Source: Planctomycetaceae bacterium
Lineage (GTDB): Bacteria; Planctomycetota; Planctomycetia; Pirellulales; Pirellulaceae
Direction of reading: 5' to 3'
NCBI GenBank assembly: GCA_012729315.1
Contig: JAAYDI010000004.1
Location: forward strand, 42,239 to 106,238
DNA length: 64,000 bases
The translations under genes were made by a program, and so were the position numbers. Below, piece by piece: positions 7,988 to 28,620 of the stretch. The notes beneath the pieces are model-generated. The model worked only from the letters and a program-made list of their open reading frames with translations, did not search any database and was not told the DNA's origin. Every line of letters begins with the position of its first letter. The stretch's first letter is position 1.

Positions 7988-9391
7988 TCACAGCAGGTGG
8001 CGGGCCTTGATGTCCAGGTAGCGATTCACGAGCGGGGCGGTCAGGTCTTCGGGGAACGCATCCAGCACCAGTACGCCCTGGTGTTCCAGGTCGCTCAGCA
8101 GCTCGTGCCTCCAGCTCAGGATGCCGGCTGCCGCCGCTGCGCGATAAAGCCCCGGCCCCTCCGTGGCACCTGACTCGGCCACGCGGAACAGCTCGCGATC
8201 GCGCAGCAACACGCACACAGGCAGGTGGCGCCCGAGCTGTGCGTACAGGTAGCGTTTCACCTGCAGGCTGTTGACCTCGTCAATCAGATGACTGACGAGC
8301 ACGACCAGGGCGCGTTTGCGGAACCGGGTGGCCAGGTGCAGAAACGCGAGGTCATAGCGGGATTCCACCAGCTGTGGGAAGCGGTCGAACGACGCGTGCA
8401 GCAGCCGGTTCATCTGGCTCATCCCGCCGCGCGCCGGAACGGACTTGTGAATCCGATCAGAGAAGCAGACCAGGCCGACGGCATCCCCCTGGCGCAGCGC
8501 CACATAGGCGAGCATGAGCGTGGCGTTCAGGGCGTGATCCAGCAGGCTCAAGCCGGTCGACTCGCTGTGCATCAAGCGGCCGCAATCGAGCAGCAGTACG
8601 ATCCGCTGGCTCTGGCTGGTCTGATATTCCTTGACCGTCAGCTTGTTCCGCCGCGCGGTGGCCCGCCAGTCGATGTGTTTGTAGTTGTCGTCGGGCGTGT
8701 AATCCCGCAGTCGCTCGAAATCGTGGTCCTGGCCGACCGTGCGGCTGTGACGCACCCCCATCAGACTCAGGCGGTTCGTGCGGGCCAGCAGCGCGTATTT
8801 TCTCAGCTGCACCAGGTTGGGATACACGTGCACCTGCGACGTGACCGGGCACGACACATGGCGTTTCCAGCATCCCCACCGGCTACGCACACACAGGTGA
8901 ACCCACGCCAGTGTCAGCACGCCGCGGCGGGACGGCGTGAGTCGATACGACAGCGTAATGCGGCTGCGCCCCTGCATGCTCAGCACAAACTCGGCCGGCG
9001 CGGCTGCACACGATTCCGGTACATCGTCCCGGATCCACAGGTGGGCGCGCCGCGCGGCGTGGTAGAGTACGGTCAGCTGAACGTGATGCGGATTGTTGAG
9101 CGAGGCGACACGCTCCGTTTCTCGCTGCGCGAAGAAGGCGCGCGCCCGCGGCAGGGTGCACAGGTCAACCAGCGCCAGCCCGACAACAGCTGCGTCGACG
9201 AGCACGACGACCAGCAGAAACTCGGGCAGTACCACTGGCACCAGGGCGAGCAGGCAAGGGACTGTCAGCAGCGCCATCAGCGCCGTGTGGGGATACACCC
9301 GGCGGCGCGCCAGCAGGACCAGCGGCAGCGCCGCGAGGGCGGTGAGCAGTACCAGATGCAGCGCCAGCCTGTCGAGCAGTTCACGGATCAC
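7988..9391 (-). CDS. DUF58 domain protein (MoxR partner) with N-terminal TM helices
   Basis: DUF58 core: DFERLRDYTPDDNYKHIDWRATARRNKLTVKEYQ...IVLLLD. 4-nt overlap with the moxR stop. Confidence 0.8.
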   Translation of the reverse strand: MIRELLDRLALHLVLLTALAALPLVLLARRRVYPHTALMALLTVPCLLALVPVVLPEFLLVVVLVDAAVVGLALVDLCTLPRARAFFAQRETERVASLNNPHHVQLTVLYHAARRAHLWIRDDVPESCAAAPAEFVLSMQGRSRITLSYRLTPSRRGVLTLAWVHLCVRSRWGCWKRHVSCPVTSQVHVYPNLVQLRKYALLARTNRLSLMGVRHSRTVGQDHDFERLRDYTPDDNYKHIDWRATARRNKLTVKEYQTSQSQRIVLLLDCGRLMHSESTGLSLLDHALNATLMLAYVALRQGDAVGLVCFSDRIHKSVPARGGMSQMNRLLHASFDRFPQLVESRYDLAFLHLATRFRKRALVVLVSHLIDEVNSLQVKRYLYAQLGRHLPVCVLLRDRELFRVAESGATEGPGLYRAAAAAGILSWRHELLSDLEHQGVLVLDAFPEDLTAPLVNRYLDIKARHLL

Positions 9392-10488
9392 AGTCGCGGC
9401 ACCTCCACGCTGCGGATCAGTTCGCGCAACAGATCGTCGACCCGCTGACCCTCCACTTCCGCTTCCGCCGTCAACATCACGCGGTGCCGCAACGCGGGCA
9501 ACGCCAGCTGCACTACGTCGTCGGGAATGGCGTAGTCACGCCCTTCAAATGCGGCCAACGTGCGAACCGCCTGCATCAGCGCGATGCCGGCGCGGGGGGA
9601 CGCCCCCAGGTGGAACTGCGGCCACTGACGTGTCAGCCGGACCAGCTTGTTGATGTAGTCCAGCAGGCGATCGGCGACCCGCACGTTGCTGTTCGCCTGG
9701 GTGATCGCCACAATCTCGGCCGGCGACGTCACGGTCGCCACGTCCCGCTCCAGCCGCTCAGTGATGTCGACCTGGCAGCTGTGCATCTTCAGAATCGCCG
9801 CCTCCTCCTCGGCCCGCGGATAGTCGGCCACCAGTTTGAACATGAAACGGTCCAGCTGCGCCTCCGGGAGGTTGTACGTCCCCTCCGACTCGATCGGGTT
9901 CTGAGTGGCCATCACGAGGAAGGGGCGTTCGAGCGCATGGCTCTTGCCGTCCACCGTGACGCGGTATTCCTGCATGATCTCCAGCAGGGCCGCATGCGTC
10001 TTGGCCGGAGAGCGGTTGATTTCGTCGGCCAGCAGGATCTGGGTGAACACCGGACCGGGCCGGAATCGGAACTCCTGCGTTTTCATGTCGAAGATCGGAG
10101 CTCCGGTGATGTCGGAGGGCATCAGATCCGCCGTGAATTGGATGCGGCCAAAGGCACAGCCGAGTACACGCCCCAGCGTGCGGACAAACAATGTCTTGCC
10201 CAGGCCGGGCACGCTCTCCACCAGCACATGGCCGCTGGAGAACAATGCCACCAGCGACCCCAGCACCAGCTCGTCCTGCCCCACGAAAATCTTGCCGATC
10301 TCGCCGACCATCCGGTCGAATACTCGCCGCGCCGGGGTGGCGTGGGTCCCGGCCGCCAGGCTGCGTTGCACCGACAACACGTCGGGTGCCGCGTCCGGCG
10401 CGGCCGGTCGGGACTGCGGGTCGGGGCGCTGCAGTGACTCGCCGCGCGGCGGAATCTTGCCGTGGGGATCCAGGGGTGCGCTGTTCAT
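9388..10488 (-). CDS. MoxR-family AAA+ ATPase
   Basis: GHVLVESVPGLGKT (Walker A), ILLADEINR (Walker B), and the AAA lid. Confidence 0.9.
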   Translation of the reverse strand: MNSAPLDPHGKIPPRGESLQRPDPQSRPAAPDAAPDVLSVQRSLAAGTHATPARRVFDRMVGEIGKIFVGQDELVLGSLVALFSSGHVLVESVPGLGKTLFVRTLGRVLGCAFGRIQFTADLMPSDITGAPIFDMKTQEFRFRPGPVFTQILLADEINRSPAKTHAALLEIMQEYRVTVDGKSHALERPFLVMATQNPIESEGTYNLPEAQLDRFMFKLVADYPRAEEEAAILKMHSCQVDITERLERDVATVTSPAEIVAITQANSNVRVADRLLDYINKLVRLTRQWPQFHLGASPRAGIALMQAVRTLAAFEGRDYAIPDDVVQLALPALRHRVMLTAEAEVEGQRVDDLLRELIRSVEVPRL

Positions 10489-11813
10489 GTCCGTGCGTCC
10501 AATTCGGGTGAAGTGGGTGGCTCGAATGGCAGGCCGGCAGACGGTCCGGCATGCCGTGGCCGCGTGACGGGGTCACGACGCGTGACCAGATGGTAGTGCT
10601 CGACTTGACGCTGGGCGAACTGCGCGTCACCCGTTCTCTGCAGCAGTTCACCGAGCGCGTCGACATGTTGCACAAACGCCGCGGGATGCGCGTCTGGAAC
10701 CGTTTCATCGGCGACCGTTCTGGGGCGGCCGAAAATGGGGTAGACACAGAAACAGTAGACCAGGCCCAGCACGCACCAGTGCGCGGCAAGCAGCACGCGT
10801 TCGCGCGTGGCACGCGACCATGCGGGCAGGGGCGCCTGGTCCGACACCATCGGGTCGCCCGGTCCGCTCTCCAGGAAACCCACGGCGGAGCCGGATCCAC
10901 ACGTCCGGATCAGATGCCCGGCCAGCTTCCGATGAGCATGGTTCACCAGCGGAAGATTCAGCAGGAACGACCCGTTGGTGATCACGATCACCTGGCTGTG
11001 CCCCCAGCCCGGCTTCCGTATGCGGCTGACCAGAACGGTCGGACCGGCGCTGAGCAACGTCTCGTAGTACGGAGTCTCGTAGTCCAGAACCTCGTCGGCG
11101 GTCTGCGGCGAGTCTGGCCGGAGCGCCAGCAGCTCCTGCCGCGTGGGAACCTGGAGCTGCCCCTGGGTGTGGATGCTTGTGGTTGCCGCGTCCACGCCTG
11201 CGCTCCATGGCCCCTGCAAGTGAGTCGCCTGCTGCCGCGGGCAGTCGCGCCGCACGGTGAACCACTCGATCGTCGCCTCGGCGGGCATCGCCAGACGATC
11301 CTGCTCATGCTGTGCGGTGGCCCGGGCCAGTCGCCGCATTATTTCGATCCGCTCGGCGGCCGGCGCGCCAGCGGAGACTGCCTGCCAGTAATGCGGTTCG
11401 GCGTTGTAGTCGCGCCCGATATACACGAGTGTCTTGCGTGTGGGAGACCGAAGCCACTGCTCGAAATACTGCTGCACCTCGGTACCGGGCGGACCGAAGT
11501 CGTCGGGTGCCCACACAATCACATCGCATTGCTGCAGGTCGCTGGCCAACCGGCGCCAGGTCGAGACCTGGCAGTCGGCCTCCTCAAACAGGGTGGCCAG
11601 CACGCTTGTGCCATTGACGCTCCTGCCGGCCGTCCCGCGCTGGTGCCCGTACGCGGTCTCCAACTGCTCAGGGTCGCGGCAGCCAGCGCCGGCTGCCAGG
11701 AGGATGATGGCCAAACTCATTGCCCGCGCGACGGCTGCAGACATCGGCCGGACAGGAACTGGTCGCTGTGCGGCGCTGAGCGAGACCGGCGCGTCGTGGT
11801 CAGATGTCCTCAT
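10485..11813 (-). CDS. DUF4350-like (GldG/ThuA-fold) lipoprotein
   Basis: ATGA overlap with the upstream gene. Lipobox LAAGAGC. Motifs CDVIVWAPDD and VIVITNGSFLLN. Typical member of MoxR operons. Confidence 0.6.
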   Translation of the reverse strand: MRTSDHDAPVSLSAAQRPVPVRPMSAAVARAMSLAIILLAAGAGCRDPEQLETAYGHQRGTAGRSVNGTSVLATLFEEADCQVSTWRRLASDLQQCDVIVWAPDDFGPPGTEVQQYFEQWLRSPTRKTLVYIGRDYNAEPHYWQAVSAGAPAAERIEIMRRLARATAQHEQDRLAMPAEATIEWFTVRRDCPRQQATHLQGPWSAGVDAATTSIHTQGQLQVPTRQELLALRPDSPQTADEVLDYETPYYETLLSAGPTVLVSRIRKPGWGHSQVIVITNGSFLLNLPLVNHAHRKLAGHLIRTCGSGSAVGFLESGPGDPMVSDQAPLPAWSRATRERVLLAAHWCVLGLVYCFCVYPIFGRPRTVADETVPDAHPAAFVQHVDALGELLQRTGDAQFAQRQVEHYHLVTRRDPVTRPRHAGPSAGLPFEPPTSPELDART

Positions 11814-22859: not shown

Positions 22860-24581
22860 TCACGGCGTTCCTGCCGCGTCCGGGTCCTGTGCGGGCGCTG
22901 CGTCCAGGGCGGAGTCCAGCATGTCGGCGAGTTTCGCGTCCAGCGTCGATCCGGCCACGAACAGGTCCACGACATTGCCTTGGCGATCGATCAGTAGCAG
23001 GTACGGGATCATCTCCACGCCGCATTGTTCGGCCAGCTTGCTGTCGGCGATGTTCACCCACGGCAGCTGATTTTCGCTGACAAACGCACTTGCGGTGGCG
23101 GTGTCTTGATCGAGGCAGACCCCCAGCACGTCAAAGCCCTGTGCGTGGTACTTGTCGTAGAGTGACTTGATGGTCAGCAATTCCGGCTTGCAGGATGGGG
23201 CGGCAGACGCCCAGAAGGCCACCAGCAGCACTTGGCCGTGGTACGGCGCGGCATCCAGGGGAGTGCCATCAAGCCGTGTGCCTGCGAGGTCGAGTGGCTT
23301 TCCCAGCAGGTTCAACCGCCGCATGGTGATGTCACTCTTCTCGATGGCGAATTCCCGGATCCTGGGGCTCGTGTTGTTCTTGTAGGCGGCCCGGAGCAGT
23401 TCGCATACTTTGGCAGCCAGCTCGTAGTTGCCGGACTGTTCGAGCTGCGGCAGGCAGCTGCCGATCCGCTCCAACGCGATGGCACCCGGATTCGGACGTT
23501 GCAGAGCCTGGGTGACGGCGTCGGTGAAGGCCGCGCCCGCACCGTCCCGTTTCAGCAGGACATCATTGAGTTTCATCTCGATCTGCAGGTCCGCAAGCGC
23601 AATCTGCTCGAGCATGTTGTCCGCCTCCATGGCCACCTGTGGGTCCGCATGGTCGCGGAAAGCGTTGGCGATCAGGCTGAATACTTCACGCGCTTCTTCC
23701 TCGCGGCCCACGCTGCGCAGGGCCATGAACGCCTGCTGCGTGACGGCCAGGACCGATGCGTTGCGCTGGTCGTCTGCCAGCAGCGTCTTGACCTGCGCGA
23801 TCAACGCGTCGACGTCCTGGCTCCGTCCCTGCGTGATCTCGCCGACCAGAATACCCAGCAGGATCGTGCGCCCTTCGATCGCAATGGCCGGACTCGGATC
23901 GGCCGCCACGGACGTCGCGAACTCGCGAATCTGCGCGCCCCACGAGGGGTCGGGGGTGACCTGGCCGAGCATCAGTAGAGCGCCGGCTTTGGTTTCCACT
24001 GCCTGCTTGCGCGTCGCCTCGTCCACCTCCGCCGCCAAGATGCGATTCGCCGCTTCCAGCAGGGCTTCCAGGGCCGGCCGCATCGCCGCCGGCGTCGCTC
24101 TACCCTGTTGAATCTGCGTCTGAATCGCAACCAGCTGCTTCCCCTGCTGCTGGATGAATTGCATCAGTTCCTGCGGACTGCCATCGGGGACCGCCAACGT
24201 GTCGAGCTGCTCGCCCGCCAGCGCTGGCGGCTGCGGCAGTGAGTTGGTCTGTGGCACCTCGCCACCGGCACTGTCTGCGGCCGGTGCCGGCACGGCTGCC
24301 GCCGGCGCGGCTGCCGCTGGACTGTCGTCCACGGGCGGGCGAGCAGTGGCTGGTGCCAGGTCGGGGGGCAGGAGGGGCGGTACGTCCGGCTGGATGGGTG
24401 GCTGGACGGGTGGCTGGACATCCGCCGAGTCATCGTCGGCCACTTCGTATTTGGGCGCCTGTTGCGCCTCGTCGGCCGGCTTCGGCTTGCTGCATCCACC
24501 TGCCAGGCCCGCCACGCTCAGGAGGCTGGCGCCCAGCAACCACCCTGCCACACGACACTGTCGCCACGCACGATTCGACAT
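22860..24581 (-). CDS. TlpA-like thioredoxin-fold lipoprotein with long N-terminal Pro/Ala-rich helical region
   Basis: Lipobox LAGGC. The C-terminal redoxin fold reads VLLVAFWASAAPSCKPE, so the canonical WCxxC motif appears as AAPSC with a single Cys. Confidence 0.7.
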   Translation of the reverse strand: MSNRAWRQCRVAGWLLGASLLSVAGLAGGCSKPKPADEAQQAPKYEVADDDSADVQPPVQPPIQPDVPPLLPPDLAPATARPPVDDSPAAAAPAAAVPAPAADSAGGEVPQTNSLPQPPALAGEQLDTLAVPDGSPQELMQFIQQQGKQLVAIQTQIQQGRATPAAMRPALEALLEAANRILAAEVDEATRKQAVETKAGALLMLGQVTPDPSWGAQIREFATSVAADPSPAIAIEGRTILLGILVGEITQGRSQDVDALIAQVKTLLADDQRNASVLAVTQQAFMALRSVGREEEAREVFSLIANAFRDHADPQVAMEADNMLEQIALADLQIEMKLNDVLLKRDGAGAAFTDAVTQALQRPNPGAIALERIGSCLPQLEQSGNYELAAKVCELLRAAYKNNTSPRIREFAIEKSDITMRRLNLLGKPLDLAGTRLDGTPLDAAPYHGQVLLVAFWASAAPSCKPELLTIKSLYDKYHAQGFDVLGVCLDQDTATASAFVSENQLPWVNIADSKLAEQCGVEMIPYLLLIDRQGNVVDLFVAGSTLDAKLADMLDSALDAAPAQDPDAAGTP

Positions 24582-24757
24582 CCCATTTCTCCGTCGAAGA
24601 TCGAGTATTGCCGGACGCTCCACAGCAGCGTTGTGCCGTGCCGTGCCGCGTCCTCGGGCTGACCGCCGATTCCGGCTGCTGCTGGAGACGCGACCATTGT
24701 AGAGCATGGCCCCGGCTGACGCAGCCGGGGGGCGCGGAGGGGCACGCACCGTGGCGT

Positions 24758-26701
24758 TCACTCGTGGTGGAACCGGGCGATGATGTTCCAGGCCTCTTCC
24801 GGCGTTTCGGCGTAGGAGATGAGATCCAGGTGGGCGTCGGCAATCACCCCTTCGTTGGCCAGGAACTGGAAGTCGATCACGCGGCTCCAGTACTCGCGGC
24901 CGAACAGGATGATGGGAATCTCCTGCATCCGCTGCGTCTGCCGGAGCGTCAACGCGTTAAACAGCTCGTCCAAGGTGCCAAACCCGCCGGGGAAGACGAC
25001 CAGCGCCTTGGCGCGCATCAGGAAGTGCATCTTGCGGAGTGCAAAGTAGTGGAACTGGAAGCACAGACTCGGCGTGATATAGGGATTGGGGACCTGTTCC
25101 ATGGGCAGCGTAATATTGAGTCCGATGGACTTGGCACCAACGTCGTGCGCGCCCCGGTTGGCCGCCTCCATGATGCCCGGCCCGCCCCCCGTGACGATCA
25201 CGTAGTCGCGCTGTCCGTTTGTCTGGCACCGCCGAGACACCAGCCGTCCGAACTCGCGCGCCGCGTCGTAATAGTGGCCTTTGGCCACGATGCGCTCGAG
25301 CTGCTGCACCGCGCGCTGCCGCGCCGGATCGTCGGGGGATTCGGCCAGTGCCGTCCGGGCGCGCTCCAGTTCTTGCTGGGCGACAGGTGTTTCGACGACC
25401 TGCGTGCCGCCAAACACCACGACCGTTGAGTTGACCCCTTCGCGCGAGAAGCCCAGCTCCGGCTTGAGCAGTTCCAGCTGCAAGCGCACGGCCCGCAGCT
25501 CCGGGCTCTGCAGCAGCTGGACGTCGTATTCCACGGGCAGGTAGCTCGGGGACGAGAGGATGGCCTGAAGATTTTCCTGAGCCGCGACCGGATTCATGAC
25601 ACCTTCCTGACGCGCTGAAGTGTACGAGACGGCATGTTGGCTTGGCAGCAGTTGCCTCGTGCCCCATGACACGCCGCCGGCAACCAGGGCCAGTCCGCAC
25701 AGCACACCGATATGACTGTGGGGTCCGAGCGATGGGAACTGTTCGACGAGCGACCCCCATTTGATGATGTACAGGAGGCACGCCAGCGTCAAATAGCCGC
25801 ACCAGTAACCGTACCAGGGTCCCGGACCCAGACGCGCTACAAACCGGGCAATCGCTACAACGAGCAGATGCACGGCGGCCACAACCGGGACGATGGCGGC
25901 CACCGCCTGCCACCCCAGGAACGTGCCGCATACGGCGCACGACCATACCGCCCAGTGCTCCGCCGGCCGGCAGCCCGGTGTGCGCGAGGCGGGCCAGACA
26001 CAGAGTCCCAGCGCGATGCCGGCCAGCAGCCCCCAGAGCGCGGCGGACGAATCGGTGAACCAGGGGGGCGCGGCTGCTAGATGACAGACCGGCACGGGAT
26101 GCAGCCAGGCGCAGACCGGGGAAACTGCGAGTCCCGTGAGAAGCGCTGGCAGGAAGACGCGCCGCGGCACCCGCTCGCCCGAGCCCTGGATCAGCGCCGC
26201 CGTGGCGAGCGTCACCAGCAGCAGGCAGTGGTAGCCGTAGAGCGACCAGTACTCAAACGGCGTCAGGCGGTGCAGGTGCGGCGCCTCGATCGGCGCGGGC
26301 AGATTGCGGCCCCCCACCAGTCCCTCTCCGCAGGCGAGCGCCAGGAACAGCAGTCCCATCAGCAGCTCGACCAGCGGGTACCGTACCGATATCCATGTGC
26401 CACAATCGCGGCAGCGCCCCCGCAGCATGAGCCAGGCGAGCAGCGGAACATTGTCGTACCAGCGGATGGGGTGCAGGCAGACCGGGCACCGCGAACTGCT
26501 GCGCGCCACGCTCAGGCCCGCAGGCAGCCGCAGCGCCACCACGTTGACGAAACTGCCCACGCAACTGCCGATCGCGAACAGCCAGACGGCGAGGAACACC
26601 TGCATCAGGTCGAGCAGAAACCGCGAGAACAACAGCGAAAATCCGTCAAACAACCAGGCTGAGAGCATTGCGCGCCAATTCGGAAGCTGGGGCCGGACCA
26701 C
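24758..26701 (-). CDS. fusion protein: prepilin-peptidase (A24) N-terminal-like polytopic membrane domain + LOG/TIGR00730-family Rossmann domain
   Basis: N-terminus: FAIGSCVGSFVNVVALRLP, CPVC...CRDC zinc knuckle and VRYPLVELL, as in PilD N-termini. About 8 TM helices follow. From about aa 360: GGGPGIMEAANRGA and PGGFGTLDELFE LOG motifs. One ORF with no stop. Confidence 0.6.
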   Translation of the reverse strand: MVRPQLPNWRAMLSAWLFDGFSLLFSRFLLDLMQVFLAVWLFAIGSCVGSFVNVVALRLPAGLSVARSSSRCPVCLHPIRWYDNVPLLAWLMLRGRCRDCGTWISVRYPLVELLMGLLFLALACGEGLVGGRNLPAPIEAPHLHRLTPFEYWSLYGYHCLLLVTLATAALIQGSGERVPRRVFLPALLTGLAVSPVCAWLHPVPVCHLAAAPPWFTDSSAALWGLLAGIALGLCVWPASRTPGCRPAEHWAVWSCAVCGTFLGWQAVAAIVPVVAAVHLLVVAIARFVARLGPGPWYGYWCGYLTLACLLYIIKWGSLVEQFPSLGPHSHIGVLCGLALVAGGVSWGTRQLLPSQHAVSYTSARQEGVMNPVAAQENLQAILSSPSYLPVEYDVQLLQSPELRAVRLQLELLKPELGFSREGVNSTVVVFGGTQVVETPVAQQELERARTALAESPDDPARQRAVQQLERIVAKGHYYDAAREFGRLVSRRCQTNGQRDYVIVTGGGPGIMEAANRGAHDVGAKSIGLNITLPMEQVPNPYITPSLCFQFHYFALRKMHFLMRAKALVVFPGGFGTLDELFNALTLRQTQRMQEIPIILFGREYWSRVIDFQFLANEGVIADAHLDLISYAETPEEAWNIIARFHHE

Positions 26702-26787
26702 GCGTGTTTCGCGCCATCTCCAGCTCTATCGTAGTCGGCCTGACCCGGTCCGCCAGAGGGTGTCCGCCGCTGGATTACAGATCCGGA

Positions 26788-28620
26788 TCACAAATACGGT
26801 GCGAGGGGACCGCCCCGCGCCGCCAACGCGTCTACGCGGCGCGACACGGCGGGATCCTCCACTACCGGCGGCGCATGCTGCGGTTTGATCCGGGCGTCGG
26901 TTACCAGCGCGCCCCGGCAGCCCCAGTGCTTCTGCTCCACCGAGACGCCGATTCCGTACGTGTCCGCCGCCGGATCGCTGCGCGTGAAAACAACCCAGAG
27001 AAAATTGTCCAGGTGCCGGGCGGTGAACTCGCTGTCATCCACGATCACGATCCAGGGGAAACGATTGATCGGCGACTCGGCCGTCTGTTCCTGGCAGAAA
27101 CGCGCCACGGCAGTATCGCCGGCGTGTGCACAGGCGGGGCCCTGCAGCGCCAACACGCCCGGCAGGCAGATCCGCGGGGAGTGGAAGCCGGCCGGCAACG
27201 ACAGCTCCGCCGGAATCTCGACCGGCAGCGCCCGGATGGGTGGACCGGCCGCCGCGATGATGACTTTCGACCCTTCATTCAGGGCCGTACCGGAGTAGTC
27301 CAAGGTGTCGATCGTCGTGCGGGTCTGGAAGTGCAGGTCACGTCGCCAGTCGACCCGCAGCAGCGCGTGCCGGAAGAAAGCGGGCACGTTGCCAGCGTCC
27401 AGGGCCGGATCATCCTGGCGGTCGACAATCCACAGATACTTGGCCAGCGACATCTGGCCGGTGCCCAGGATGGCGTGGGCCTGGGTGAGCAGTTCCCGCG
27501 GCAGACGCCGTGTTTCATAGGGGACGTAACGTTCGCTGCCGATCGCCAGCATCAGCGGGTGGACACCGGCCGCATCGACCGCATGCACCGCGTGCACACC
27601 GGGCACGACGTGCGGCACGGCCGGCGCTGTGAGCTCGTGGATCAGCTGACCGAACACGGTATCTTCCTGGGGCGGTCGCCCGACGACTGTGAAGGGCCAG
27701 AGGGCCTGGTCCCGGCACGTGACGCGTTCAACCTGCAGGTAGGGGAACTCGTGCTGCAGGCTGTAGTAGCCGAGATGGTCTCCGAACGGGCCCTCCGGCA
27801 GCGTCCGGGTGGGATCGATTGTGCCCTGAATGCAGAAATCGGCCTCGGCGTACACGGGCACGTGTCCCGCGCGGCACACCATCGGGATACGATGTCCACC
27901 CAGCGCTCCGGCAATGATCAGCTCGGACATCCCTTCGGGCAACGGCATGACGGCGGCCAGCGTCATGGCGGGACTGCCGCCCACGAAGATGCTGACCGGC
28001 AGCGGCACACCTCGGTCGCGCGCCGCGGCATGGTGCACGCCGATGCCGCGATGCAGCTGATAGTGCAGCCCTACCTGCCGGTTCGACACATACTGGCCAC
28101 CGGACAACTGGACCCGGTACATGCCCAGATTGGCGCTGTGCAAGCCGGGATCGCGGACGTCCTCGGTGTAAACCTGCGGCAGCGTGATGTAGGCGCCTCC
28201 ATCGTCAGGCCACGACTTCAGCTGCGGCAGTTGGTCGACCGTCAGTTCGTGGGCCAGCACCGGTCCGGAGGAAACGCGCCGGGGACGCATGTGCCAGACG
28301 GCGGGCAGCGCGCGCAGGGACCGGCCGGGTGCCCGGCCGAACTGCGTGGGATCCATCTTCAGTGCGATCAGATGGCGGACCCGATCCAGCGTATCACGGA
28401 AGATGAACCGCGCCCGGTCGATGGTCCCGAACAGATTCGAGACCATGGGGAACCGGCAGCCGGTCACCCGCTCCAGCAAGACGGCCGGTCCCCCACGCTG
28501 ATAGACGCGCCGCTGGATCTCCGCCGCCTCCAGCTCCGCGCTGATCTCGTCCGTTAACCGCACCAGCTGCCCGGTGCGTTCCAGGTCAGCCACACATTGT
28601 CGCAGCGTGCGATAAGCCAT
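26788..28620 (-). CDS. UbiD-family decarboxylase
   Basis: N-terminus MAYRTLRQCVADLERTGQLVRL and overall UbiD-like layout, about 610 aa. Confidence 0.8.
   Translation of the reverse strand: MAYRTLRQCVADLERTGQLVRLTDEISAELEAAEIQRRVYQRGGPAVLLERVTGCRFPMVSNLFGTIDRARFIFRDTLDRVRHLIALKMDPTQFGRAPGRSLRALPAVWHMRPRRVSSGPVLAHELTVDQLPQLKSWPDDGGAYITLPQVYTEDVRDPGLHSANLGMYRVQLSGGQYVSNRQVGLHYQLHRGIGVHHAAARDRGVPLPVSIFVGGSPAMTLAAVMPLPEGMSELIIAGALGGHRIPMVCRAGHVPVYAEADFCIQGTIDPTRTLPEGPFGDHLGYYSLQHEFPYLQVERVTCRDQALWPFTVVGRPPQEDTVFGQLIHELTAPAVPHVVPGVHAVHAVDAAGVHPLMLAIGSERYVPYETRRLPRELLTQAHAILGTGQMSLAKYLWIVDRQDDPALDAGNVPAFFRHALLRVDWRRDLHFQTRTTIDTLDYSGTALNEGSKVIIAAAGPPIRALPVEIPAELSLPAGFHSPRICLPGVLALQGPACAHAGDTAVARFCQEQTAESPINRFPWIVIVDDSEFTARHLDNFLWVVFTRSDPAADTYGIGVSVEQKHWGCRGALVTDARIKPQHAPPVVEDPAVSRRVDALAARGGPLAPYL

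Follow-up and report, generated by a model that had tools for sequence, protein, structure and literature searches.

Prepilin peptidases of the PilD type (GspO, XcpA; MEROPS family A24A) pair an N-terminal A24_N domain (PF06750) with a catalytic A24 domain (PF01478), and are laid out as a first transmembrane helix (TM1), a cytoplasmic four-Cys A24_N domain and a multi-TM core. What their zinc-dependent N-terminal domain does has been a puzzle since the 1990s, methylation being dispensable for pilus assembly; the first catalytic Asp of the core is D149 in PaPilD and D125 in TcpJ. In PilD, A24_N faces the cytoplasm, and its knuckle Cys residues coordinate Zn; these Cys, and also a Gly and a basic residue next to the third of them, are needed for N-methylation and not for cleavage; the Gly-basic pair before Cys3 is required for methylation by the Pseudomonas aeruginosa enzyme (PMC3584216). 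The known type IIa LOG proteins, CgLOGII (Cg1261, 5WQ3), TtLOGII (TT1465, 1WEK), ScLOGII (5ZI9), YgdH of Neisseria meningitidis (9US2) and BpLOG (BP1253), are soluble dimers or hexamers. We know of no settled physiological role for type II LOG enzymes outside cytokinin-producing organisms. Type II LOGs have been described as hexamers whose chemistry requires a 5'-phosphate (PMC5379747).

The gene described here joins the two families. It lies in a 64,000-nt stretch of contig JAAYDI010000004.1 of a Planctomycetaceae bacterium (the window) and is encoded, like all features located below, on the minus strand. Its open reading frame (24758..26701) comprises an N-terminal A24_N prepilin-peptidase domain and a complete C-terminal type II LOG domain, with no stop codon between them. 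Translation could start at a GTG at 26701, giving 647 aa, or at an ATG at 26668, giving a protein 11 aa shorter; the ATG is used by all public gene calls, so that the gene as found in public assemblies occupies 24758..26668 (636 aa plus stop; taken from the ORF list and verified by translation). In the 647-aa form, Pfam searches matched A24_N_bact (PF06750) at aa 44–123 (E 4e-31) and LOG (PF03641) at aa 511–639 (E 5.5e-30; 104.7 bits versus a cut-off of 27), and the NCBIfam model TIGR00730 was passed marginally (96.5 bits versus 96.35). The catalytic A24 domain, PF01478, gave nothing at E ≤ 1, and none of the ~78 fusion clusters has a precomputed match to it, unlike the true PilDs from that search. 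The in-frame fusion of a PilD-like membrane domain to LOG reported in the preliminary description is thereby confirmed, as is its assignment of the N-terminal region with the CPVC...CRDC knuckle to the PilD/A24 type. Two of its motifs had been slightly misread: the helix is FAIGSCVGSFVNVVALRLP, not LLGSC..., and the LOG motif is PGGFGTLDELFN, not ...LFE.

An identical 636-aa protein (P0001) is encoded by no fewer than 23 independent contigs, which come from Logan, ENA, JGI and NCBI and represent varied samples and assemblers, and some 70 protein clusters (72 of at least 590 aa; 41–74% identity) from Pirellulaceae and other Planctomycetota show the same architecture. The membrane half has a GC3 of 0.82 and the LOG half one of 0.85, uniform over the junction and similar to that of the neighbouring genes. 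The fusion is a real single protein, conserved among many Planctomycetes. A promoter and terminator scan returned a single sigma-70-like match, located within the gene itself, and a weak hairpin.

We put it at somewhat better than an even chance that the protein is a nucleotide phosphoribohydrolase tethered to the membrane by a pseudo-protease scaffold, and not a PilD. The preliminary description had proposed this architecture, and conservation, fold and topology all support it. In this reading, one polypeptide in the inner membrane would combine three parts: TM1 with a four-Cys A24_N domain, as intact as in real prepilin peptidases; an eight-helix GxGD core that has kept its fold and lost both catalytic Asp residues; and, past TM9 and a flexible linker, a type IIa LOG facing the cytoplasm. 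The tethered LOG would split nucleoside 5'-monophosphates into free base and ribose-5-phosphate, and judging from the sequence a nucleoside-5'-monophosphate phosphoribohydrolase is the most likely function of the fusion. A24_N may act as the conserved partner of LOG, docking and possibly regulating it, with the dead peptidase body as a scaffold.

The LOG domain with its N-terminal extension (aa 363–636; 24761..25582) is assigned to type IIa by PF03641, TIGR00730, phmmer and Foldseek. In the PDB, phmmer found 5zi9 (E 1.4e-35) as well as 1wek and 5wq3, and Foldseek gave TM scores of 0.82–0.85 over ~245 columns to these three and to 9us2; identity to the type IIa LOGs is about 30–33%. The region of the type II-specific alpha-1 helix (LQLELLKPE...; 25442..25483), which AF2 models as a helix at 396–409 before beta-1 and in which R392, R395, L398, E399 and K402 are invariant, corresponds to the hexamerisation helix of CgLOGII (PMC5379747). 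In the nucleotide-binding loop TGGGPGIMEAANRGA (aa 493–507; 25148..25192), T493, G494–G496, P497, G498, M500, E501, A502, A503 and N504 are invariant. So are the putative catalytic Arg545 and substrate-binding Lys546 (25031..25036), whose counterparts are R155 and K156 in CgLOGII, at a constant offset of 390 (PMC5379747), and R120 and K121 in BpLOG, which are essential by mutagenesis (PMC6864091). The motif PGGFGTLDE (aa 560–568; 24965..24991), in which D567 is the type II signature and E568 is catalytic, is identical to residues 170–178 of CgLOGII (PMC5379747), and all of P560–E568, like R545, is invariant in 65 sequences. By these residues the LOG active site is complete, and N-glycosidic cleavage of nucleoside 5'-monophosphates would be expected of the fusion as of its type IIa relatives, with which it has in common both catalytic residues, Arg and Glu, as well as the type II Asp and the alpha-1 extension. 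It differs from these soluble proteins in that its LOG is covalently tied to a nine-TM protein. PpnN (YgdH of Escherichia coli), an alarmone-regulated nucleotide 5'-monophosphate nucleosidase, has the same LOG-fold core and may share a role in nucleotide catabolism, but the fusion lacks the flanking domains and the ppGpp-binding architecture of PpnN, and it scored 30.7 bits against the PpnN model NF038390 (cut-off 450), over the LOG core only.

The nearest relatives of the LOG half form a stand-alone subfamily of ~290–330 aa with a conserved SPSY...ELRPVRLQLELLKPE N-terminal extension that is widespread, among the matches listed, in Nitrospira, Proteobacteria, Verrucomicrobia and Planctomycetes. 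The underlying contig scan used patterns from the LOG half and describes the distribution of this LOG subfamily among the matches listed; it is no census of the fusion. Four long LOG ORFs from other phyla (L054, L074, L076 and L077) that resembled membrane fusions proved to have spurious, Arg-rich upstream extensions in high-GC DNA, with no TM helices.

Nine TM helices are predicted for the fusion, with LOG placed in the cytoplasm and 15 Lys and Arg residues in the predicted inside loops versus 3 in the outside ones. Eight helices separate A24_N from LOG, which puts the two on the same side of the membrane, and as A24_N is cytoplasmic in PilD, LOG would be cytoplasmic too. The flexible linker that follows TM9 (aa 341–362; 25583..25648) is poorly conserved and has pLDDT values below 50 for aa 345–356. 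We considered TM9 as a fusion-specific addition that placed LOG in the cytoplasm and rejected this, for TM9 and a basic C-terminal tail occur in most stand-alone Asp-less homologues; they are also found in the true PilDs P0102 and P0108, and only the split forms L020 and L014 stop after TM8. Fitting six nine-TM anchors around a D3-symmetric LOG hexamer is a geometric difficulty for the tethered model.

A mixed assembly would ease this geometry. The gene might have two products, the 70-kDa tethered protein and a soluble LOG of ~31 kDa started at Met358, which would co-assemble; this reading is compatible with the tethered enzyme favoured here, and we regard it as rather unlikely. The internal Met (M358; 25595..25597) is conserved, stands where stand-alone LOG genes start and has an SD-like aggaagg 6–12 nt upstream. 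A Met occurs 12–16 aa before SPSY in 37 of the 42 scorable fusions, versus an expectation of ~0.29 for any Met in such a span; SD-like purine runs lie 6–15 nt upstream of it in the window and in the loci L004 and L005, and the NCBI entry NLX53598.1 (279 aa) is annotated from exactly M358. These sequence features hint that a soluble LOG may be made too. Against this, Shine-Dalgarno sequences are weakly used in Planctomycetes, the Met may be a relic of an ancestral start or structural, and L007 lacks the Met and L006 the SD-like run.

At the other end of the protein, TM1 (aa 20–42; 26543..26611), predicted to run from outside to inside within a long AF2 helix (aa 2–47), carries the conserved motif G34..G38-S-F-x-N-V, whose residues are invariant both in the Asp-less family and in true PilDs. 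It leads into the cytoplasmic zinc-knuckle module, the A24_N domain proper (aa 33–112; 26333..26572), in which the four-Cys knuckle C61-P-V-C64 ... G84-R85-C86-R-D-C89 (26402..26488) has C64, C86 and C89 invariant and C61 and G84 conserved in at least 90% of the sequences. Columns average 0.70 identity in A24_N, compared with 0.41 across the TM body and 0.85 within the LOG core. Every A24_N residue that is invariant in true PilDs is also kept in the fusion, including the four Cys and G84-R85-C86, so that the sequence determinants of N-methyltransferase activity, namely all the knuckle Cys plus a Gly-basic pair ahead of Cys3, are present.

A24_N and LOG are paired in three forms: as the fusion, as adjacent genes, and as a mini A24_N protein of ~120 aa encoded beside LOG, usually inside a UbiD ... 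LOG-SDR/redoxin cluster. Asp-less A24 homologues and LOG occur as split gene pairs in L020, L014 and L090. The intergenic DNA of L020 and L014 contains no cryptic TM9 in any frame, as a frameshifted fusion would, and these two are therefore genuine two-gene arrangements. The mini-proteins (TM-Zn knuckle-TM) form more than 110 clusters, with LOG downstream in all five loci examined, and in three related loci a gene for a beta-CASP nuclease lies between A24_N and LOG, which would fit a pathway from RNA through NMP to base. The membrane module of the fusion itself belongs to a large family, with hundreds of members, of stand-alone Asp-less A24 homologues. Both the recurrent pairing and this family membership are new in the present analysis. 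The preliminary description, sound as regards the tethered LOG, overlooked both: the degenerate module comes from a large Asp-less family and is no one-off decay, and the A24_N zinc-knuckle module is the conserved partner of LOG, also as an adjacent gene or a ~120-aa mini-protein. The partnership is not obligatory, since many Planctomycete and non-Planctomycete genomes among the matches listed, such as Bythopirellula (L018) and Mariniblastus (L024), encode the same long type II LOG (50–68% identity) and no A24_N gene within 10 kb of it.

In the window, the fusion gene is preceded by a gene for a UbiD-family decarboxylase (610 aa; 26788..28620; Pfam), which is met again upstream of LOG partners of all three kinds, fused, split and mini, and whose best NCBIfam match, the menaquinone biosynthesis decarboxylase model TIGR03701, reached 348 bits, under the cut-off of 495.9. 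Downstream, starting 176 nt past the fusion stop codon, lies a gene for a TlpA/ResA-like thiol-disulfide oxidoreductase (573 aa; 22860..24581; Redoxin, AhpC-TSA and Thioredoxin_8 in Pfam, ResA/TlpA-like in NCBIfam) with a lipoprotein-like N-terminus (...LAGGC). No pilus, type IV pilus or T2SS genes were found within 8–10 kb on either side in the window or in L001–L007, and the 64-kb window contains no second A24 homologue and no true PilD. An anti-phage defence system with a SLOG/LOG-like effector was considered and rejected: PADLOC matched neither the fusion nor either neighbour, and the neighbours are of the housekeeping type. A role of LOG as a futalosine or aminofutalosine nucleosidase in the menaquinone pathway, suggested by the UbiD neighbour, was set aside because Proteobacteria and Nitrospira, among the matches listed, commonly encode this LOG subfamily outside that context and the UbiD protein is under the TIGR03701 cut-off.

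The intact A24_N domain leaves room for a paralogue of PilD that only methylates. The fusion and its Asp-less family would then retain Zn- and SAM-dependent N-methylation of cleaved pilin-like proteins or of another substrate, with LOG coupled to it, for instance by acting on an adenine-containing by-product. All A24_N invariants of true PilDs and the fold of the TM groove are kept, and Planctomycetes have many prepilin-like DUF1559 proteins, one of which is encoded next to the stand-alone relative P0093. We nevertheless consider this unlikely, as mini A24_N proteins, which have no TM body to accommodate a pilin substrate, are still linked to LOG, A24_N has no recognisable SAM-binding fold, the conserved cluster contains no pilin genes, and LOG chemistry needs a 5'-phosphate (PMC5379747), which SAH and MTA lack.

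More speculatively, and in our estimate quite improbably, A24_N could be an autonomous membrane module, and more than the methylating portion of PilD, that was recruited in Planctomycetota as a mini-protein, as an Asp-less pseudo-peptidase and as a covalent fusion, in each case to partner a type II LOG at the membrane and switch it. Through its Zn(Cys)4 site it could, for instance, sense thiol/redox state or SAM and so gate nucleotide breakdown at the membrane. Links to oxidative stress have been reported for bacterial LOGs, and these, together with the conserved thiol-disulfide oxidoreductase neighbours, would fit such a switch. If true, no GxGD-type pseudo-protease family of bacteria would have been assigned a regulatory role before this one, and A24_N would gain a function independent of pilin processing.

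To return to the tethered enzyme on a dead scaffold, the GxGD-protease core (TM2–TM9; aa 113–340; 25649..26332) is homologous to PilD over ~290 residues (HHalign probability 100, E 2e-60), shares its layout and, in the structural model, retains the GxGD-protease transmembrane fold. Catalytic residues were judged by MAFFT alignment, a comparison anchored on LGWQ, and HHalign, with 12 PilDs as references, and all three bear out the loss of both catalytic Asp residues that the preliminary description had suspected. At the former first site, I160-Q161-G-S163-G-E-R-V-P168 (26165..26191), Q161 aligns with an Asp that is invariant in 12/12 PilDs; among 65 fusions this column holds R in 26, E in 20, Q in 5 and D in 4, and the family has instead an Asp of its own at +2 (60/65, 92%), which in the window protein is replaced by S163. 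The window copy is thus more degenerate than its relatives, a third point missed earlier. The former GxGD site reads E237-H-W-A240 and is followed by the retained A24 motif L-G252-W-Q254 (25907..25960). The two Gly and the Asp of GxGD are present in 12/12 PilDs, whereas the Asp2 column of the 65 fusions is dominated by E (25), A (15) and P (6), D being found in just 2. No protein of the aligned fusion family has a Gly-x-Gly-Asp motif, and none of the 65 members has Asp at both catalytic columns. By its sequence the core is a pseudo-protease that has kept its fold, lost both catalytic Asp and should be unable to process prepilins. Since it is confidently folded and has conserved residues of its own (the +2 Asp in 92%, G252-W-Q254), the TM body seems to be more than a passive anchor.

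That the family might still cleave prepilins with non-canonical residues, such as the +2 Asp and a Glu at the GxGD position, is very unlikely. The Asp in 60 and the Glu in 25 of 65 fusions, along with the retained fold, could be read that way, but the window protein has neither residue (S163, A240), the Gly-x-Gly frame by which GxGD proteases are defined is missing from the whole family, stand-alone Asp-less relatives vary greatly at the Asp2 column (A, P, V, D, T and others), a shift by two puts the side chain on another face of the helix, and no pilus or T2SS genes adjoin. Compared with PilD, then, the fusion keeps LGWQ and the Gly-basic-Cys3 element, has Q161 and EHWA in place of the catalytic Asp and GxGD, and carries a C-terminal cytoplasmic enzyme of 280 aa. 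With both Asp and PF01478 missing, LOG attached and no pilus or T2SS neighbours, the database label 'prepilin peptidase' is misleading and wrong. The searchable literature yielded no description of a pseudo-protease family of the GxGD/A24 type. A parallel in concept is offered by the iRhoms and Derlins of the rhomboid superfamily, large families that have an intramembrane-protease fold, lost catalysis and gained extra cytosolic domains; rhomboid serine and GxGD aspartyl folds, domain of life and function all differ, and the likeness is one of analogy only.

The preliminary description had also offered as its alternative that a frameshift or the loss of a stop codon had joined an authentic PilD to the adjacent LOG gene, to which an assembly or sequencing error may be added as a cause; this is hardly credible, because the same protein stands on at least 23 contigs, ~70 diverged clusters retain the single ORF, GC3 is even across the junction and the membrane part is no authentic PilD anyway. 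What could speak for it are an NCBI entry, NLX53598.1, that annotates the LOG part alone, and split versions in some assemblies (P0081 with a 261-aa LOG at locus L008, P0111 with a 213-aa fragment at locus L091); these split versions come from noisy contigs and are the reverse artefact, fusions broken by indels. As their contigs hold many fragmented genes, P0081 and P0111, nominally stand-alone, were excluded when counting genuine A24/LOG splits.

The ~70 fusion clusters, the hundreds of Asp-less homologues and the more than 110 mini A24_N clusters are all mislabelled 'prepilin peptidase' or 'leader peptidase/N-methyltransferase', although by their sequences these proteins should be incapable of cleaving prepilins, and counting them as PilD would lead to misleading reconstructions of pili and secretion in Planctomycetes. 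Evolution has here uncoupled A24_N from proteolysis, and the mini-proteins have dispensed with the entire peptidase body as well, yet all the A24_N invariants are kept, so that the independent function of this domain becomes directly testable. The same sequences would be the first indication of a bacterial type II LOG placed at the membrane with a dedicated partner, in a conserved UbiD-(beta-CASP)-LOG-SDR-redoxin neighbourhood, and the membrane part may represent a bacterial intramembrane pseudo-protease re-used as a scaffold, by analogy with the iRhoms.

The reading frame noted in the preliminary description at 24758..26701 on the minus strand is present and codes for 647 aa if counted from the GTG at 26701; all public gene calls start it at the ATG at 26668, giving the 636-aa form whose residue numbering is used here. 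Pfam models matched PF06750 (A24_N_bact) at the N-terminus (E 4e-31) and PF03641 (LOG) at the C-terminus (E 5.5e-30) and gave no match to the catalytic prepilin-peptidase domain PF01478, even at E ≤ 1; the NCBIfam model TIGR00730 scored 96.5 bits, barely over its cut-off of 96.35. The motifs quoted earlier were found in the protein, apart from two minor slips of transcription. Most likely the fusion is no prepilin peptidase. We consider it moderately probable that it is a membrane-tethered NMP phosphoribohydrolase, in which the dead GxGD core would serve as a scaffold, the A24_N zinc knuckle would act as the functional partner of LOG (through docking and possibly regulation) and LOG, held at the membrane, would split NMP.

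The C-terminal part, which the preliminary description had called a complete LOG-family domain, is a LOG of type IIa and is intact. Its matches among PDB sequences (phmmer) are 5ZI9 (E 1.4e-35), 1WEK, 5WQ3 and 9US2, to which the full-length model (pLDDT 88.7) aligns over ∼245 columns (TM 0.82–0.85), so that what looks like a 'linker' from residue ∼363 is the N-terminal extension of type II enzymes, with its alpha-1 helix at 396–409. Residues R545, K546, D567 and E568, invariant in 65/65 sequences, correspond at a constant offset of 390 to R155, K156, D177 and E178 of CgLOGII, where R155 and E178 are catalytic, K156 binds the substrate and D177 is the type II Asp (PMC5379747). BpLOG, which cleaves GMP, CMP and AMP, cannot do without its counterparts of the Arg, the Glu and the Lys (PMC6864091), and all three are kept in the fusion. 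The models place TM1 at 20–42, followed by the A24_N loop, eight helices (96–116, 137–162, 173–190, 202–228, 239–251, 253–276, 289–310 and 320–340), a disordered linker (345–356) and LOG. As to the side on which LOG lies, it is predicted to face the cytoplasm, the compartment of its nucleotide substrates, because the number of passes from A24_N is even, A24_N of PilD is cytoplasmic (PMC3584216) and the predicted cytoplasmic loops hold 15 Lys and Arg residues versus 3 in the outer loops.

Stand-alone LOG genes begin at the position equivalent to M358 (25597..25595, minus strand), and 37 of the 42 fusions that could be scored have a Met 12–16 residues ahead of 'SPSY', a LOG motif. By chance, a stretch of this length would contain a Met with a probability of ∼0.29. 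Purine runs resembling a Shine–Dalgarno (SD) sequence occur 6–15 nt 5′ of this Met in the window and at two related loci (L004 and L005); in the window, 'aggaagg' stands 6–12 nt 5′ of M358 (upstream region 25598–25615). A 279-aa protein from one MAG (NLX53598.1) has been annotated at NCBI from exactly M358. This Met may be a relic of an ancestral start codon, or an internal start that is still used and yields a putative soluble LOG; production of both forms, which is compatible with the main model, seems to us unlikely. The region's sole sigma-70-like consensus match (25764–25792, minus strand; TTGACG-17-CATCAT, 9/12 positions) is weak and intragenic, ∼170 nt 5′ of the internal ATG; Planctomycete promoters may differ.

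Mean column identity is 0.85 in the LOG core, 0.70 in A24_N and 0.41 in the TM body. No A24_N position that is fixed in true PilDs varies in the fusions or in their stand-alone relatives; these positions are G34, G38-S-F-x-N42-V, R47-x-P49, S59, C61/C64, N73-x-P75, L82, C86/C89, Y97 and E101, along with G84-R85 preceding the third Cys. In Pseudomonas aeruginosa PilD zinc is bound by the four Cys, which are required for N-methylation and dispensable for cleavage, as are the Gly and the basic residue beside the third Cys (PMC3584216). That the fusion has kept a zinc- and SAM-dependent methyltransferase function is quite unlikely in our estimate.

The two catalytic Asp of the peptidase, described earlier as apparently missing, are indeed gone according to three independent alignments: MAFFT with true PilDs, an LGWQ-anchored comparison, and HHalign of 45 homologues lacking the catalytic Asp (Asp-less) against 12 PF01478-positive PilDs (probability 100, E 2e-60, 281 columns, query 21–311). 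All three place Q161 opposite the first PilD Asp (present in 12/12), a register fixed by the gap-free alignment of Pro at +7, and E237-H-W-A240 falls opposite G-x-G-D, each position of which is conserved in 12/12 PilDs. Among the 65 fusions the first column reads R26/E20/Q5/D4/... and the second E25/A15/P6/V4/... with D in 2; none has Asp at both columns and the Gly-x-Gly-Asp motif is absent. The fusions have a conserved Asp of their own at +2 from the lost first Asp (60/65). Alone among the 65, the window protein has Ser at this position (S163; 26165–26191, minus strand) and is thus more degenerate than its relatives; it carries Ala (A240) at the former GxGD Asp, where 25 relatives show Glu. 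Judged from these alignments, the membrane half is a pseudo-protease, and proteolysis by some non-canonical route is highly improbable.

An exhaustive HMMER search with residues 1–345 (E ≤ 1e-30) recovered 336 representatives. The 145 new best matches (P0109–P0253) are mostly 280–420 aa long and cover query residues ∼22–335 at 35–50% identity; a G.GD string and a LOG domain are both absent from 140 of them, and no Asp was found at the first catalytic column in an alignment of 45 such stand-alone homologues. Therefore, the degenerate module belongs to a large stand-alone Asp-less A24 family, of which the LOG fusion is one branch. The stand-alone members retain the LGWQ motif and the conserved Asp at +2; no LOG gene adjoins two of the more distant ones (P0089 and P0093). 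Now and then the scaffold is joined to other domains. In one 1244-aa protein (P0239) the Asp-less module lies C-terminal to a transglutaminase-like core, and in another of 438 aa (P0083) the same long LOG is joined to an unrelated four-TM N-terminal domain.

The chance that the fusion is an assembly or sequencing artefact, such as a PilD joined to the next gene by a frameshift or lost stop as had been proposed, is negligible, since gene calls on at least 23 contigs, which come from independent samples and assemblers (Logan, ENA, JGI, NCBI), give exactly this 636-aa protein, and ∼78 clusters with PF06750 and PF03641 and without PF01478 were recovered when 5.8 billion proteins were searched. In 72 of the clusters the protein has 590 aa or more and its LOG motif is intact; the 65 aligned sequences are 41–74% identical to the window protein. 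GC3 (codon-position GC) hardly changes from one side of the junction to the other (0.82 vs 0.85) and resembles that of neighbouring genes. The source labels read 'prepilin peptidase [Pirellulaceae / Planctomycetota bacterium]' or 'TIGR00730 family'. Both domain families are well known and the architecture is already in public databases, misnamed; in the searchable literature we found no description of the fusion, of the Asp-less A24 family or of the mini A24_N proteins considered below. Two apparent 'split' versions, P0081 (L008) and P0111 (L091), misleadingly look like stand-alone membrane proteins and were rejected as true splits; they are best read as fusions broken by indel errors, the reverse artefact. 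Their long contigs (ENA ERZ250395xx) carry many fragmented genes (the M17 peptidase and UbiD are split like the fusion) and look like indel-rich long-read assemblies. Open reading frames of 396–629 aa run antisense to the fusion and UbiD genes (24239–25429 and 26668–28557, plus strand, and others); they are typical high-GC antisense frames with Arg/Gly/Pro-rich translations, called as genes in none of the public assemblies of this locus.

A24_N and LOG are linked in three ways: by covalent fusion, as in the window; as neighbouring genes, with a long type II LOG behind an Asp-less A24 homologue (L020, L014 and L090); and through mini A24_N proteins. In the Thermoguttaceae locus L020 the two genes are ∼140 nt apart (10880–11020), and the spacer, a short tandem repeat that reads ...PTPNSQLPTPSFQLPAPNFQLPTPNFQLP... 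in one frame, encodes no TM helix in any frame. At L014 the two reading frames (8068–8826 and 8789–9682) overlap in different frames, LOG has its own ATG at 8843, ∼14 nt past the A24-like stop, and no frame between them encodes TM9. At L090 a beta-CASP nuclease gene intervenes. The mini proteins (∼114–130 aa; >110 clusters, Pirellulales) consist only of TM1, the four-Cys knuckle and TM2 with a conserved '...TPWL' end; they are annotated as prepilin peptidases yet have none of the peptidase body. All five mini loci examined (L025:9890–10276, L041:9947–10312, L015:4804–5184, L093:6001–6366 and L094:6001–6345) have a LOG gene downstream in the same orientation. Since the mini form has no peptidase body, the conserved partner of LOG is the A24_N module. 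LOG does not always have this partner: among the matches listed, members of its subfamily (50–68% identity) are solitary, with no A24_N gene inside 10 kb, in many Planctomycetes (Bythopirellula, Mariniblastus) and in Nitrospira, Proteobacteria, Verrucomicrobia and others.

The recurrent gene order is UbiD-family decarboxylase, A24_N protein, sometimes a beta-CASP nuclease, LOG, and an SDR and/or TlpA-like redoxin; the order from UbiD to redoxin is found with fused (window, L004, L005), split (L014, L090) and mini (L025, L041, L094) forms. In the window, the UbiD-family gene occupies 26788–28620 and the redoxin gene 22860–24581, both on the minus strand; the best model for the former, TIGR03701 (futalosine-pathway menaquinone decarboxylase), scores under its cut-off. 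The beta-CASP metallo-beta-lactamase nuclease (∼462 aa, aCPSF1- or RNase J-like) separates the A24_N gene from LOG at L015:5340–6728, L090:7099–8493 and L094:6460–7845 and could supply 5′-NMP substrates for LOG. As leads only, this neighbour suggests a route from RNA through NMP to base and ribose-5-phosphate, and the redoxin neighbours, taken with the Zn(Cys)4 site and with the published connections of LOG to oxidative stress, point to a switch linked to redox state.
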